Made by a program: the position numbers and the translations under genes | Notes under the pieces: generated by a model | Databases searched by the model: none | Told to the model about the DNA's origin: nothing | What the model saw: the letters and a program-made list of their open reading frames with translations, nothing else | Sequence record: NC_014260.1 | Origin: Escherichia phage IME08 | Strand: one strand, 5' to 3' | DNA length: 64,000 nucleotides | In this document: piece by piece, positions 5,633-42,535 of the stretch | Layout of the letters: each line of letters starts with the position of its first letter | How positions within the stretch are numbered: position 1 is the stretch's first letter

Positions 5633-7129
5633 ATGCAAATTCAAGTACATTTCGATAATTTTAGTCATGTTCGTATTGAGTGTGATGAATCCACATTCTA
5701 CGAACTCAGAGACTATTTTAGCTTTGAAGCTGATGGATATAAATTCAACCCTAAATTTCGTTATGGTCAATGGGACGGACGTATTCGCCTTCTGGATTAT
5801 AATCGTAAACTTCCTTATGGATTGGTTCCGCAGATTAAAAAATTCGCTGAACAATTTGAATACTCTCTGTGGATTGACCCACGTATTCTTGAACAGGAAG
5901 ATATTTCTCGTGAAGATTTTGACTCATGGGTGGCATCTCAAGAAATTTATTCAGGGTCTACCAAGATTGAGCCCCATTGGTATCAGAATGAAGCCGTATA
6001 CAACGGTCTAACAAAACGTCGCGCAATTCTGAATTTACCTACATCTGCAGGTAAATCATTAATCCAGGCGCTCCTGAGTCGATACTACGTTGAGAACTAT
6101 GAAGGTAAAATTCTTATCTTAGTTCCTACTACTGCACTCGTTGACCAGATGATTAATGACTTCATCGATTATCGGTTGTTCCCTAAAGCCGCAATGCTTG
6201 GAATTCGTTCAGGTACTGCTCGTGATTCTGATGCAATGATTTACGTTTCGACTTATCAAACTGCTATTAAGCAACCTAAAGAATGGTTTGCTCAGTTTGG
6301 TATGTTTATGAACGATGAATGTCATTTGGCTACAGGTAAATCTATTTCTACCATCATCGAAGGCCTAACCAACTGTATGTTTAAATTCGGTTTGTCTGGT
6401 TCTTTAAAAGATGGTAAAGCTAATTTAATGCAATATATGGGTTTGTTTGGTGATGTGTTTAAACCTGTTTCCACCTCCCAATTGATGGAAGAAGGACAGG
6501 TTACAGACCTTAAAATCAACAGTATTTTCCTTCGATACCCAGACGAATTCACTGTTAAGATGAAAGGTAAAGATTACCAATCAGAAATTAAAGTCATTAC
6601 TAAGGCTACTCGTCGTAATAAATGGGTTGCTAATTTAGCTGTTAAACTCGCTAAGAAAGAAGAGAACGTATTCCTGATGTTTAAAAACATCGAACACGGT
6701 AAAACTCTTTTTGAAATGGTTAAAGAGCAACATAAAGAAGTTTATTACGTATCAGGTGAAGTTAATACCGAAACGCGTAATGCTCTGAAAGTAATGGCGG
6801 AAAATGGTAAGGGTATTATTGTTGTGGCAAGTTATGGTGTGTTCTCTACTGGTATTTCTGTTAAGAACCTTCATCACGTTGTATTTGCTCACCCAGTAAA
6901 ATCCAAAATCATTGTACTCCAGACAATTGGTCGTGTACTCCGTAAACATGCTTCCAAATCAACAGCGCAAGTATGGGATATCATCGACGACATGGGTGTT
7001 AAGCCTAAATCAGCTACGGCTAAAAAGAAATATGTTCATTTGAACTACGCCCTCAAACACGCTTTAGAACGTATTCAACGTTATGCTGATGAGAAATTTA
7101 ATTACGTAATGAAACAGGTGGATTTATGA
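5633..7129 (+). CDS. uvsW: UvsW DNA/RNA helicase
   Basis: 498 aa; SF2 helicase motifs (PTSAGKS Walker A, DECH box); T4 position. Confidence 0.9.
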   Translation: MQIQVHFDNFSHVRIECDESTFYELRDYFSFEADGYKFNPKFRYGQWDGRIRLLDYNRKLPYGLVPQIKKFAEQFEYSLWIDPRILEQEDISREDFDSWVASQEIYSGSTKIEPHWYQNEAVYNGLTKRRAILNLPTSAGKSLIQALLSRYYVENYEGKILILVPTTALVDQMINDFIDYRLFPKAAMLGIRSGTARDSDAMIYVSTYQTAIKQPKEWFAQFGMFMNDECHLATGKSISTIIEGLTNCMFKFGLSGSLKDGKANLMQYMGLFGDVFKPVSTSQLMEEGQVTDLKINSIFLRYPDEFTVKMKGKDYQSEIKVITKATRRNKWVANLAVKLAKKEENVFLMFKNIEHGKTLFEMVKEQHKEVYYVSGEVNTETRNALKVMAENGKGIIVVASYGVFSTGISVKNLHHVVFAHPVKSKIIVLQTIGRVLRKHASKSTAQVWDIIDDMGVKPKSATAKKKYVHLNYALKHALERIQRYADEKFNYVMKQVDL

Positions 7130-7353
7130 AAACCTTTAAAGAAGTTATTCAGGAAGCATCTATTGAAAGCTTCATGTCTAAAATTAGTTCGTGTCAGACC
7201 ATGGAAGGTCTGGAGGAATTAGAGAAGTATTACAAAACTCGTAGTAAGGAAGCCGAACTTCGTGATTCGGATGATATCAGCGTACGCGATGCATTGGCTG
7301 GTAAGAGAGCTGAATTGGAGTCGATGGACGACGAGGAAGAGGAAGATTTCTAA
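7126..7353 (+). CDS. uvsW.1: UvsW.1 small acidic protein
   Basis: 75 aa, ATGA-overlapped with uvsW stop; acidic C-terminus DDEEEEDF. Confidence 0.6.
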   Translation: MKTFKEVIQEASIESFMSKISSCQTMEGLEELEKYYKTRSKEAELRDSDDISVRDALAGKRAELESMDDEEEEDF

Positions 7354-7361
7354 ACAAAAAA

Positions 7362-7383
7362 GGCCCAACCTTTCGGAAGGGCC
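7362..7383. terminator. hairpin terminator after uvsW.1
   Basis: GGCCC…GGGCC stem with inner CC/GG pairing, directly after stop. Confidence 0.5.
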
Positions 7384-7413: not shown

Positions 7414-7581
7414 CTAAATTAATAATTGGGTTTCGTTCAGCTGTTCTTCAGTGTTTTCCGTAACCGGCAAGCTTTGAACGTAATTATAGCATGGACCCGG
7501 GTGAACCGGACCTTTTTCTGTTTCAACAACCAATGCAGCATCGATTGGAGTTTTACAGACAACGCAAATCTTATCTGACAT
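7414..7581 (-). CDS. small Cys-containing protein (CxxC…C), hypothetical
   Basis: 55 aa MSDKICVVCKTP…GPCYNY…; strong RBS AAGGAGA 7 nt upstream of ATG; not in the supplied ORF track (<60 aa). Confidence 0.4.
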   Translation of the reverse strand: MSDKICVVCKTPIDAALVVETEKGPVHPGPCYNYVQSLPVTENTEEQLNETQLLI

Positions 7582-7609
7582 GATTGTCTCCTTAGTTTAA
7601 CTTACATAT

Positions 7610-8308
7610 CTATTTATTAGCCAAATTCTTTTCAAATGTTTTAACCATATAACCTACATCTAAATCAGGAAATCCATTCTCAACTATTATGCGTTGAAAT
7701 TTCCTTCTTTTAGGCATTCCTTCCTTTATCCAAAGTTCACGGATTTCCTTTTCAAATTCCCATAATTTACTTCTCATAGAAAGCTTAGGCTGTGAATGTT
7801 TACCTATATGGGCCTCATTAGCCTCTTTGGTACGTTTCTTACCTAATTTGGCTAATGACATAGCTTTTTTAGCTTCTTCTGTATGAGAATATGGATTTCT
7901 TTTATGACCCGCACTTATGGCTTGTTTGGTGGATTCAGACCTTGGAATACCTCGTATTTTCGACGCACTCTTTTCAATAGATTCAGGAGAACGAGTAGTA
8001 CAACTACCTCCTTCACCACCAGGTTTCATATTCATACAGCGAATACCTTTACCAAACTTATCCCAAGCCTCTTCTATCAAAAGCTCTTCGAATTCATAAG
8101 CAAGTTGTTCGGTATCGAAAAAAGTCCTATCGACTATTTCAATTCGGTATTTTAATCTTTTTGCATAATAGATGTAATTACCAGACCCTACATACTTGTC
8201 AGATATTTTATCAGAAGAATGCTTACCAAAATATCGCCTAGTTCCGTTAGGCGAGTATACTAAAGTTTGGTAGCACATATGGTACTTTTTATTTTTCACC
8301 TGCTTCAA
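7610..8308 (-). mobile_element. free-standing homing endonuclease-like gene (seg-like, degenerate GIY-YIG N-terminus with NUMOD-like basic repeats)
   Basis: 232 aa; N-terminal LVYSPNGTRRYFGKHSS…YVGSG resembles GIY-x10-YIG; Ser/Lys-rich repeats (SxxxKxxISxxHKxNP, AKKAMSLAKLGKK) as in I-TevI/Seg DNA-binding regions; overlaps uvsY 3' end. Confidence 0.5.
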
Positions 8309-8726
8309 ATTTCCTGAGCTCCAACATATTCTTTAATGAGAAACCTCTGGCTTTGACTGCGTCTAAAGCCGAACTACAGAAGTCCTGTAATAAAGCCCAA
8401 TACTGGATTGACGTATCGATTTTAATTACACTAGAATCTGCAGCCATTACGGTCTTTAATTCAGACTTCTCATATTGGTCCATACAAACCTCATCACCAG
8501 GCTCTCCACGTCCCGTGTAGAAATCTAATCGCTTCTTAAGTGAGGTCTTTTTCTGGATTTCTAATCTCATTATTTCTTTCTTACAATTCGTATACAGTCT
8601 TAGCCATTTGCTGTGCAGCAAAACGTTGTTCTGTACTTCATACTGTAAACGAGTCCCATCAATCTTCAAATCTTCATCCAAAGCATCTTGAAACGACTCT
8701 AATTTATATTCAATCTCTTTACTCAT
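8289..8726 (-). CDS. uvsY: UvsY recombination mediator
   Basis: Start at internal ATG (MSKEIEY…); TRLQYEVQNNVLLHSKWL and C-terminal GFSLKNMLELRKFEAG match recalled T4 UvsY. Confidence 0.85.
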   Translation of the reverse strand: MSKEIEYKLESFQDALDEDLKIDGTRLQYEVQNNVLLHSKWLRLYTNCKKEIMRLEIQKKTSLKKRLDFYTGRGEPGDEVCMDQYEKSELKTVMAADSSVIKIDTSIQYWALLQDFCSSALDAVKARGFSLKNMLELRKFEAGEK

Positions 8727-9815: not shown

Positions 9816-9823
9816 TATTTATA
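9816..9823 (-). promoter_or_regulatory. late promoter TATAAATA on minus strand (gene 26)
   Basis: Part of palindromic TATTTATAAATA shared with the gene 51 promoter. Confidence 0.5.
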
Positions 9824-9827
9824 AATA
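9820..9827 (+). promoter_or_regulatory. late promoter TATAAATA (gene 51)
   Basis: TATAAATA about 20 nt upstream of ATG 9848, RBS AAGAGG between. Confidence 0.55.
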
Positions 9828-40587: not shown

Positions 40588-41493
40588 TTATAGACCAGCT
40601 AACAGGTCGTCCAGACCATCGTCATCAGAAGGACTTACTGACGGCTCAGGAGTAGTGGAACGAGTTGGTGTAGACGGTTTAGAATCATATGCATCAAGGT
40701 CTGCACTGAAGGCGTCCAGGTCATCACCAATCTTATCAGCGGCTGCAGAAGCTTTAGCGGCAGCACCACCAAGAGCAGCTGTACCAACAACTTTCTTAAA
40801 CTTGGCTTCGTTAGTTTCGAATGATTTGAAATCGAGCAGTTTAGAAAGGTCGTGCATTTCTTCCATCAATTTAGCTTGGTAAGCTTCATCATTGATGTTA
40901 GGAATTTCAGACTGACCCATGAATTTGGAATCATCGTAGTTCTTGAAGTCGCCAACTTTCTTAGATTTCAGTACGAAGTTCGCACCATCAAACGGACATG
41001 TTACGTCAACCGGCACTTCACCAATATCAGTATCAACTTCAACCATCTGGTTGATTTTATCCATAATTTTCTGACCGAAACGGAATTTAAACACTTTACC
41101 TTCGTTAGCAGGCACTGCACTATCCTTAATAACAAGGATGTTAGCCCAGAAGGAAGTTTTACGTTTCATCAGTTTGTATTCGGCATTATTAGTATTAAAG
41201 GTATCATTCTGGTTCATGTATTTACATACAGGACACGAATCGAAATCACCGTGAGTAGACGTACAGTTTTCAATGTACCATTGACCATTTTTCTTAAAAC
41301 CGTGGTTAACGAGCTTAATGAATGGAGATGGATTTTCTTCGTTTTTCGAAGGTAGGAAACGAATTACCGCAGTACCAACACCGTTGTCATCTTTCAATTT
41401 CCATTCAGCTTTATCATCGGAAGAGAAAGAAGAACCACCTTTCATTGCGGACAGTTGAGCAGCCAGTTGGGAAGGGTCTTTACGTTTAAACAT
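40588..41493 (-). CDS. 32: single-stranded DNA-binding protein gp32
   Basis: 301 aa; MFKRK…VIRFLPSK…GDFDSCPVC zinc site and acidic C-terminus DDLLAGL match recalled T4 gp32. Confidence 0.95.
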
Positions 41494-41582: not shown

Positions 41583-42236
41583 TTAAAACTTACAAGATTT
41601 GATAGTTTCAATGAACAATTTACGAGCTTCTAAATTATCAATTATAAGGATTTTCTTATAAGCATTTAATTTAGTCGAATACTTAGACCACACTAAATCG
41701 TTGGTCTGTTCATCATGTTTATTTATTATATCCATAAATGAATCAAGCAAAATAAACGTTTCGAATGAAATAACATTCGATTGAAGGAGCTTAAAAATAT
41801 AGCTCGAGTTAACTTTTTTATTATAATCAAAAATTTCAGAAAGCGCTTGAACTTCCACTTTCTTACTAAAATAATAAATGTTTTTGATATCATCCTCAAA
41901 AACTTGTTTTATTCTTTTAAGTCTACCGATATATTCTCGGTAAAAGACTAAGGCGTCAGCATCACTGATGTCGCCAATCCATGCGTCTTGGTTAGCCACC
42001 AAGTTACTCATGAAGATAAGAGCAAGCTCTTTCAAAGTGTATTTATCACTCAATTTCTCAAAGAAATATTTGTCACGACGTTTTTGATAAGCCGTATCAG
42101 AGATTCGCATGACCCAGTTATATTTTATAACGTCGTATTTGGCATTGAAGTGATGTTTGAGCATTAAGTATAGTGAATATACGCTCTTACCATTCACCAT
42201 ACGGTTATTGTTTGGTGGCATGCGAATCTTAATCAT
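41583..42236 (-). CDS. 59: helicase loader gp59
   Basis: 217 aa (T4 gp59 217 aa); position. Confidence 0.8.
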   Translation of the reverse strand: MIKIRMPPNNNRMVNGKSVYSLYLMLKHHFNAKYDVIKYNWVMRISDTAYQKRRDKYFFEKLSDKYTLKELALIFMSNLVANQDAWIGDISDADALVFYREYIGRLKRIKQVFEDDIKNIYYFSKKVEVQALSEIFDYNKKVNSSYIFKLLQSNVISFETFILLDSFMDIINKHDEQTNDLVWSKYSTKLNAYKKILIIDNLEARKLFIETIKSCKF

Positions 42237-42535
42237 AACAAGAAATCCAGGGTATTAGTCTTTTGCGTTCGGGCCATTGAAGGTCGAAGCAAGTTATCAT
42301 CAATGGCTTCGTTCATAATTTTATCAATAATTCCTGCAGGCAAATAACGAGCAAAGTTACCTTCAGGGATGCTGTTCTCTTCCAACCATGCGGTAGCCGC
42401 TTCGAGATAGCTACATCCTTCAGCCTCAACAAAGGCCTCAATATCAAGGCCATTCTGTTGTTTGTTCACCAATACATGGACAGGTTCGGAAGCGGTATTA
42501 ACCGCTCCATCAAAATCATTCAAAGATTGTGTCAT
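42233..42535 (-). CDS. 33: late transcription co-activator gp33
   Basis: 100 aa; C-terminal LDFLL clamp-binding-like motif. Confidence 0.65.
   Translation of the reverse strand: MTQSLNDFDGAVNTASEPVHVLVNKQQNGLDIEAFVEAEGCSYLEAATAWLEENSIPEGNFARYLPAGIIDKIMNEAIDDNLLRPSMARTQKTNTLDFLL

Follow-up and report, generated by a model that had tools for sequence, protein, structure and literature searches.

What does the small Cys-containing protein encoded between uvsW.1 and a homing-endonuclease gene in Escherichia phage IME08 do? We analysed a 64,000-nucleotide stretch of this genome (sequence record NC_014260.1), hereafter the window, in which a 55-codon ORF on the minus strand (positions 7414-7581; taken from the ORF list and read directly) encodes the protein MSDKICVVCKTPIDAALVVETEKGPVHPGPCYNYVQSLPVTENTEEQLNETQLLI. 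A preliminary description, made from the letters alone, had proposed a half zinc-ribbon or metal site and, as one possibility, a host-takeover role; it gave no strand for the ORF and overlooked His27. T4 is the best-studied lytic phage, and UvsY.-2, as the ORF is identified below, has been sequenced in well over a thousand relatives and matters measurably for the growth of T4, yet it is without an assigned function. The two flanks named in the preliminary description, uvsW.1 on one side and the homing-endonuclease gene on the other, were both confirmed by Pfam and PHROG matches, and the locus reads as follows:

5633-7129, plus strand: uvsW helicase gene, convergent on the UvsY.-2 ORF.
7126-7353, plus strand: uvsW.1, convergent on the UvsY.-2 ORF (Pfam UvsW-1, E 6e-25).
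7352-7383, minus strand: terminator-like hairpin GGCCC-UUCCGAAAGGUU-GGGCC followed by UUUUUUGUUU (U-run), 30 nt past the stop codon, in the gap shared with convergent uvsW.1.
7414-7581, minus strand: UvsY.-2 coding sequence (55 aa, 6.06 kDa, pI 4.4), with the stop codon TAG at 7414-7416.
7611-7618, minus strand: late-promoter-like box AATAAATA, 30-37 nt upstream of the ATG, with one mismatch to the T4 box TATAAATA.
7610-8278 (ATG start, 222 aa) or 7610-8308 (TTG start, 232 aa), minus strand: Seg-like homing-endonuclease gene (phrog_314, E 5.5e-17).
8289-8726, minus strand: uvsY, encoding the recombination mediator (Pfam UvsY, E 5e-53), upstream in the UvsY.-2 transcription unit.

In this region the window is 99.9% identical to Enterobacteria phage vB_EcoM_IME341 (Dhakavirus, Straboviridae), in whose record (NC_055742) the ORF carries the annotation 'UvsY.-2 conserved hypothetical protein'. 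The protein matches Pfam family DUF2685 (PF10886) over profile positions 1-54 of 55 with an E-value of 9.5e-29 and 99.8 bits, the gathering threshold of the family being 25 bits, and it matches phrog_1043 with an E-value of 1.6e-29; all 77 aligned relatives also match DUF2685. UvsY.-2 of T4 (T4p185, NP_049797) has 55 residues too and is 84% identical, with 15 synonymous and 9 non-synonymous codon differences separating the two genes. A tblastn search with the ORF protein returned matches in 1134 phage records, to which divergent family members used as queries added Slopekvirus-like, Krischvirus, Karamvirus, Vibrio, Aeromonas and Pseudomonas phages, and a profile search of 1.84 billion representatives yielded 74 clusters at 50% identity, nearly all of them 51-67 aa long. 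Given the DUF2685 and phrog_1043 matches, the 1134 phage records and the 15 versus 9 codon differences, the ORF lies far beyond chance, and these comparisons establish it, at the level of sequence, as a real gene evidently under purifying selection, a member of the DUF2685 family and the orthologue of T4 UvsY.-2.

Both the gene and the family were already catalogued, and since DUF2685 is listed without an assigned function, the preliminary description was right to call the function unknown. An NCBIfam search with UvsY.-2 gave no match, and a sequence-profile search of solved structures found nothing relevant, the best E-value (0.18) being at chance level. DUF2685 is not mentioned in the literature searched, and uvsY.-2 is named there rarely. 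A fusion of the domain exists as a 126-aa gene call (P0032, phrog_26998; metagenomic contig L061, 487-867) located directly after uvsY, in which a unique N-terminal segment of 72 aa precedes the DUF2685 domain; BFVD also holds a 123-aa member. We considered this fusion as a Rosetta-stone clue and rejected it: the N-terminal 72 aa match nothing else, and with a Met inside the frame at the junction, the fusion may reflect a miscalled start.

How is the gene expressed? The strong ribosome-binding site attributed to the ORF is there on direct reading: AAGGAGA occupies 7587-7593 on the minus strand, 5 nt (CAATC) upstream of the ATG, and the Shine-Dalgarno region, GAGGAGACAATC-ATG, is conserved as a block across Tevenvirinae loci. 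Where IME08 has AATAAATA, the sequence before T4 uvsY.-2 is the exact late-promoter octamer TATAAATA; among 44 distinct upstream regions, NATAAATA is found in 26 and the exact TATAAATA in nine. The AATAAATA box is a putative promoter. The hairpin at 7352-7383 has a predicted RNA folding energy of -21.4 kcal/mol (z -2.98), and T4 and Dhakavirus MX01 have this element too; a simple terminator scan of the window did not list it. Further upstream, 26-25-uvsY is served by an exact late promoter at 9816-9823. With a strong ribosome-binding site of its own and a terminator behind it, uvsY.-2 forms the final cistron of the uvsY transcription unit, and its expression is probably middle or late, as judged by these signals.

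Several features of the surrounding DNA are worth recording alongside. At 9816-9827, between gene 26 (minus strand) and gene 51 (plus strand), two exact TATAAATA octamers overlap back-to-back on opposite strands and look like a divergent late-promoter pair. The homing-endonuclease gene is inserted between uvsY and uvsY.-2, and its 3' end, the final codons and the stop, runs into the promoter-like box of uvsY.-2. Most Dhakavirus relatives lack it, and the query aligns to them in two pieces; IME281 has it. The same gap between uvsY and uvsY.-2 is occupied by uvsY.-1 in T4 and by a 32-aa ORF in Dhakavirus MX01. The homing-endonuclease DNA is identical in NC_055742, for which RefSeq annotates only an internal 141-aa piece, i.e. 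the reference is under-annotated. The T4 locus is otherwise like that of IME08, with uvsY.-2 placed between uvsY(.-1) and convergent uvsW and preceded and followed by the same ribosome-binding block, promoter-like box and terminator; IME08 differs from it in having the homing-endonuclease gene where T4 has uvsY.-1, and in the single mismatch of its promoter-like box. Inside uvsW.1, Rfam RAGATH-33 gave a sub-threshold full-length match (7159-7269, plus strand; 33.6 bits where the gathering score is 120.4; E 3e-5 with 401 bases searched), which we rejected as probably due to chance; the family consensus has stops in the uvsW.1 frame and so does not simply repeat that coding sequence.

Functional data for T4 uvsY.-2 come from one study, CRISPRi-ART, in whose pooled dCas13d screen the gene was classed as 'Semi-Fit' with a gene score of 1.12 (KS p 0.12) and three guides at about 2.1-2.3 (PMC11879866). 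A single guide against uvsY.-2 reduced plating about two-fold and gave smaller plaques, and supplying uvsY.-2 in trans from a plasmid restored both plating and plaque size; the complementing construct, named 'sfGFP_linker_T4_uvsY.-2', appears to be an N-terminal sfGFP fusion, in which case UvsY.-2 tolerates a tag at its N-terminus (PMC11879866). In the same study uvsY.-2 was among the genes that can be expressed without toxicity to the host, and the guides against uvsY, uvsY.-1 and uvsW were all 'Not Fit' (PMC11879866). The T4 orthologue contributes to phage fitness, and the defect is mild and complementable.

With whom does the gene travel? We compared 54 loci drawn from isolates and metagenomes. 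UvsY is encoded on the same strand within 2 kb of uvsY.-2 in 52 of the 54, on either side and often only -4 to +1 nt away, with frequent overlap of stop and start codons, and convergent uvsW, with or without uvsW.1, follows uvsY.-2 in nearly all. The outer flank of the uvsY/uvsY.-2 pair varies: it consists of baseplate genes 26-25 in T4, Dhakavirus and a Pseudomonas phage, of gp35 in Vibrio phages, of gp23-gp24 in Pantoea phage Phynn, of ligase-Dda in Aeromonas phage ZPAH1 and a metagenomic lineage, and of Tri1-Dda in Cronobacter phage LPCS28. All lineages examined have uvsY.-2 at the uvsY/uvsW junction; where flanks are rearranged, it travels with dda, uvsY and uvsW, and the baseplate genes do not follow. 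Gene order is conserved among T4-like phages in general, so this synteny counts as moderate evidence only.

The 52-of-54 linkage had suggested that UvsY.-2 might be an obligate cofactor of UvsY, an idea that we rejected. Acinetobacter phage Acj61 (GU911519) has UvsY.-2 (E 5e-24) with its tail motif intact (…LLETELLL) and has kept UvsW; the best UvsY match, over 148 of its 164 kb, has an E-value of 0.38, which is noise, and annotations of uvsX and uvsY are absent. This agrees with the tblastn counts for Acinetobacter records (69 for UvsY.-2 and fewer than 30 for UvsY, although the UvsY of cyanophages was detected) and with the report that uvsX and uvsY are not common to all Acinetobacter T4-like phages (PMC4177764). 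In Aes508, too, no uvsY adjoins uvsY.-2. The slot of Acj61 that corresponds to T4 uvsX, after genes 41-40, holds two paralogous ORFs of 372 aa that are non-RecA and have no Pfam match.

Outside the phages of gamma-proteobacteria, neither Synechococcus phage Sf-CH1b nor Sinorhizobium phage phiM12 has DUF2685 at the uvsY/uvsW junction: in both, gp3, uvsY and uvsW follow one another directly on one strand (Sf-CH1b, L062 3384-5326; phiM12, L063 3261-5171). This arrangement implies that the uvsY-uvsW pairing predates uvsY.-2, uvsW being inverted in the Straboviridae of gamma-proteobacteria. As judged by these two outgroup genomes and the database hit lists, UvsY.-2 seems to have been added to a uvsY/uvsW junction that is itself ancient, and is so far confined to gamma-proteobacterial phages; among the T4-like phages of gamma-proteobacteria it is near-universal, occurring in almost all of them across various host genera.

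What kind of protein is it? The conserved elements map as follows, residue counts being taken from an 88-sequence alignment that stands for the 74 clusters at 50% identity:

7471-7572, minus strand: predicted zinc-knuckle domain, residues 4-37, with C6, C9, H27 (7501-7503) and C31 in the pattern CxxC-x17-HxxxC.
7450-7461, minus strand: linker motif phi-[STN]-E-[SN] in the region of residues 41-44, with the invariant Glu42 (7456-7458).
7417-7440, minus strand: C-terminal peptide LNETQLLI, residues 48-55, with the family consensus L-x-E-[TV]-[QE]-L-L-[LIM]-COOH.

The CVVC pair of the preliminary description corresponds to C6 (7564-7566) and C9 (7555-7557), and the Cys of its 'GPC' to C31 (7489-7491). 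Loss of these residues in homologues had been named beforehand as what would refute a metal site, and all three are invariant (88/88 each). H27 is present in 85 of the 88 members and the remaining three have Cys at this position, and since such a ligand-for-ligand swap is what a metal site leads one to expect, the substitution supports the assignment; K10 and G29 are each conserved in 87/88. An AlphaFold2 model computed with a 77-sequence alignment (mean pLDDT 80; 83-91 for residues 1-40, 56 for residues 41-50, 70 for residues 51-55) pairs strands 4-5 with 12-13 and 19-21 with 24-26 in two short beta-hairpins, followed by a helix at 30-37. The first knuckle carries C6 and C9, and H27 and C31 are placed where the helix begins, which is a treble-clef arrangement. 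The model and the alignment argue strongly that residues 4-37 fold as a single treble-clef-like knuckle, with one zinc predicted to be held by C6, C9, H27 and C31.

The metal site proposed earlier is supported by the invariant cysteines, with His27 as the predicted fourth ligand; neither 'half' nor 'zinc ribbon' is, the model being of the treble-clef type. A zinc ribbon consists of two beta-hairpin knuckles, each contributing a CxxC pair, on a three-stranded sheet. In UvsY.-2 the second ligand pair is HxxxC running over a Pro-Gly turn into a helix, with no CxxC knuckle, and the fold neighbours are treble clefs: TRASH, FCS, eL24-type and LIM-half treble clefs recur as weak fold and Pfam neighbours and share with UvsY.-2 the spacing CxxC-x17-22-[C/H]xxxC, with one ligand pair on a hairpin knuckle and the next at a helix start. 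Individual members gave weak Pfam co-hits to zf-Vps39_C, zf-FCS, LIM, C1 and DUF2175.

Beyond the knuckle, conservation is concentrated in two short stretches. Glu42 is present in 88/88 sequences, position 40 is always L/V/I/M, and position 43 is Ser in 65/88 and Asn in 11/88. The linker that follows varies in length up to the C-terminal peptide, in which L48 is conserved in 72/88, E50 in 73/88, L53 in 78/88 and L54 in 75/88 sequences; nearly all distant family matches align through the last profile position. We strongly infer that the knuckle is followed by a flexible or disordered acidic linker and then by a short conserved C-terminal peptide. With pLDDT at about 70 over the final five residues, the tail may instead pack back on its own domain and be conserved for folding.

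The character of this tail invites comparison with two proteins encoded elsewhere in the window:

40588-41493, minus strand: gp32.
42233-42535, minus strand: gp33, ending in ...NTLDFLL.

The tip of gp32 reads DDxDLDDLL[NA][GD]L in 119 gp32 homologues, its last eight residues, L-D-D-L-L-[NA]-[GD]-L, being strikingly constant. Like UvsY.-2, the tip of the gp32 A-domain and the C-terminal tails of SSB proteins present a disordered acidic segment that ends in a short leucine-rich peptide, and the gp32 tip and the UvsY.-2 tail share a Leu at -8, an acidic residue at -6 and an aliphatic C-terminus. The Leu pair is offset by two residues, located at -3/-2 in UvsY.-2 (LxExxLLphi) and at -5/-4 in gp32 (LxxLLxxphi). 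The resemblance, as far as the sequences go, is a likeness of kind and not homology. Binding of UvsW, gp59 and gp41 depends on the gp32 tail (PMC10391720).

Our preferred reading, held tentatively and falling somewhat short of probable, is that UvsY.-2, an acidic zinc-finger protein, serves the phage recombination/replication-restart module as an adaptor or modulator. The protein has 8 Asp/Glu versus 3 Lys/Arg residues, and because it is this acidic (net charge about -5, pI 4.4) it is unlikely to bind nucleic acid and protein binding is favoured. It could act as a protein-protein adaptor or modulator among UvsW, Dda, gp32 and their clients, the zinc knuckle providing one interaction surface and the C-terminal peptide docking in a groove of the partner, much as the acidic leucine-rich tip of gp32 does on UvsW, gp59 and gp41. 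The outcome would be a tuning of which enzyme reaches gp32-covered DNA in mid-to-late infection. The partner would be one other than UvsX or UvsY, the leading candidate being UvsW or another client of the gp32 tail. Because the gp32 tail is required for the binding of UvsW, gp59 and gp41 and because uvsW is the one recombination gene that consistently adjoins uvsY.-2, an adaptor or competitor at the gp32-tail docking site, with UvsW as the first candidate, ranks as the top specific mechanism, a position reached by analogy and held with low absolute confidence.

In its fullest form, which we consider unlikely as a complete account, UvsY.-2 would be an unrecognised zinc-finger regulator of recombination-dependent replication, near-universal in the T4-like phages of gamma-proteobacteria, with its tail competing with or replacing the acidic tail of gp32 on UvsW (or on gp59, gp41 or Dda) and so controlling the access of helicases to DNA coated with gp32 as replication passes from the origin-dependent to the recombination-dependent mode. 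If the partner does prove to be a recombination or replication-restart enzyme, UvsY.-2 would be a new component of a textbook pathway. The features now defined are the predicted CCHC site, the invariant Glu, the putative C-terminal docking peptide, the linkage to uvsW, uvsY and dda, and independence of UvsY in at least one phage.

Several observations weigh against the adaptor reading or limit it. The register of the Leu pair in the UvsY.-2 tail differs from that of the gp32 tip. The cyanophage and rhizobiophage that we checked have both uvsY and uvsW and lack DUF2685, so UvsW does not universally need UvsY.-2. Finally, 'Semi-Fit' for uvsY.-2 as against 'Not Fit' for uvsW and uvsY is not as expected of a mere helper to those proteins.

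An unlikely alternative is that UvsY.-2 antagonises a defence system or other host factor: being small and acidic, and perhaps a mimic of DNA or of a tail, it would neutralise a widespread gamma-proteobacterial protein, and the defect seen in T4 would reflect a host function that the screening strain has. Small acidic phage proteins are typical inhibitors, and the size and acidity of UvsY.-2 fit this reading, as does the restriction of the family to gamma-proteobacterial phages, with its absence from the cyanophage and rhizobiophage checked. The CRISPRi-ART authors themselves propose that Semi-Fit genes of unknown function may include defence inhibitors (PMC11879866, supplement). However, the Pfam, PHROG and NCBIfam searches gave no anti-defence similarity, and the transcription unit is probably middle or late rather than early. 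Anti-defence genes, moreover, are usually patchy and located in variable regions, whereas uvsY.-2 is near-universal, occupies a fixed core position and has motifs that are extremely conserved across host genera.

It is less probable that UvsY.-2 is a client of the sliding clamp gp45, its hydrophobic C-terminal peptide serving as a clamp tail of the gp33/gp55/gp43 type that takes the zinc knuckle to forks or late promoters. The C-terminal placement and the hydrophobic triplet do resemble the gp33 tail of the window, and a late promoter precedes the gene in T4. The tails of gp33, gp43 and gp55, however, have aromatic residues ([SN]L[ED]F[LM][FY]G in Acj61, LDFLL in the window), whereas the last eight positions of UvsY.-2 are without aromatics in the 88 members, bar one Phe at position 53. 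A clamp-binding tail thus appears, by its residue composition, less likely than docking of the gp32-tail type.

Still more doubtful is a host-takeover role early in infection, with UvsY.-2 inhibiting an essential enzyme of the host, for instance as a DNA gyrase inhibitor resembling YacG. E. coli YacG (PDB 4tma chain I) is among the best structural matches, and the two proteins have in common a CxxC...CxxxC knuckle and an acidic C-terminal tail. Homology to YacG was nevertheless rejected, since the hhalign probability is 2.7% although the ligands align, and none of the 77 members has a Pfam YacG match. YacG has C4 ligands and another tail motif, whereas the ligands of UvsY.-2 are CCHC; uvsY.-2 can also be expressed in E. 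coli without toxicity, and so expressed it complements the phage. Its place at the end of the uvsY unit and the late-type box that precedes it in T4 are not those of an early gene. The host-takeover factor of the preliminary description is thus not supported: uvsY.-2 closes the uvsY unit, keeps its linkage to uvsY, uvsW and dda in all lineages, is near-universal in T4-like phages of different host genera and can be expressed without toxicity.

A factor for assembly of the neighbouring baseplate hub genes' products (51-26-25), or one associated with the virion and co-transcribed late, is the most improbable of these readings: uvsY.-2 does lie downstream of 26-25-uvsY in T4, the window and many relatives, in a unit fed by the promoter at 9816-9823, but Vibrio, Cronobacter LPCS28, Pantoea Phynn, Aeromonas ZPAH1 and metagenomic lineages have their baseplate genes elsewhere while uvsY.-2 stays with uvsY, uvsW and dda.

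Two further genes near uvsY.-2 in other lineages deserve mention. In a T4 relative resembling Pseudomonas phages, a gene with an Acb2/Tad1 hairpin domain (the anti-CBASS/anti-Thoeris sponge family; L015/L016 7612-7930) lies beside inh, a few genes from uvsY.-2. A YqeY/GatB-tail-domain gene (PF09424) stands beside DUF2685 in Vibrio, Aeromonas and metagenomic T4-like lineages (L005 2417-2830; L006 2412-2828; L011 625-1035; L055 3526-3999; L054 3531-3965; L017 4564-5004); absent at the IME08 locus, it is a recurrent immediate upstream neighbour of uvsY.-2 in five lineages.
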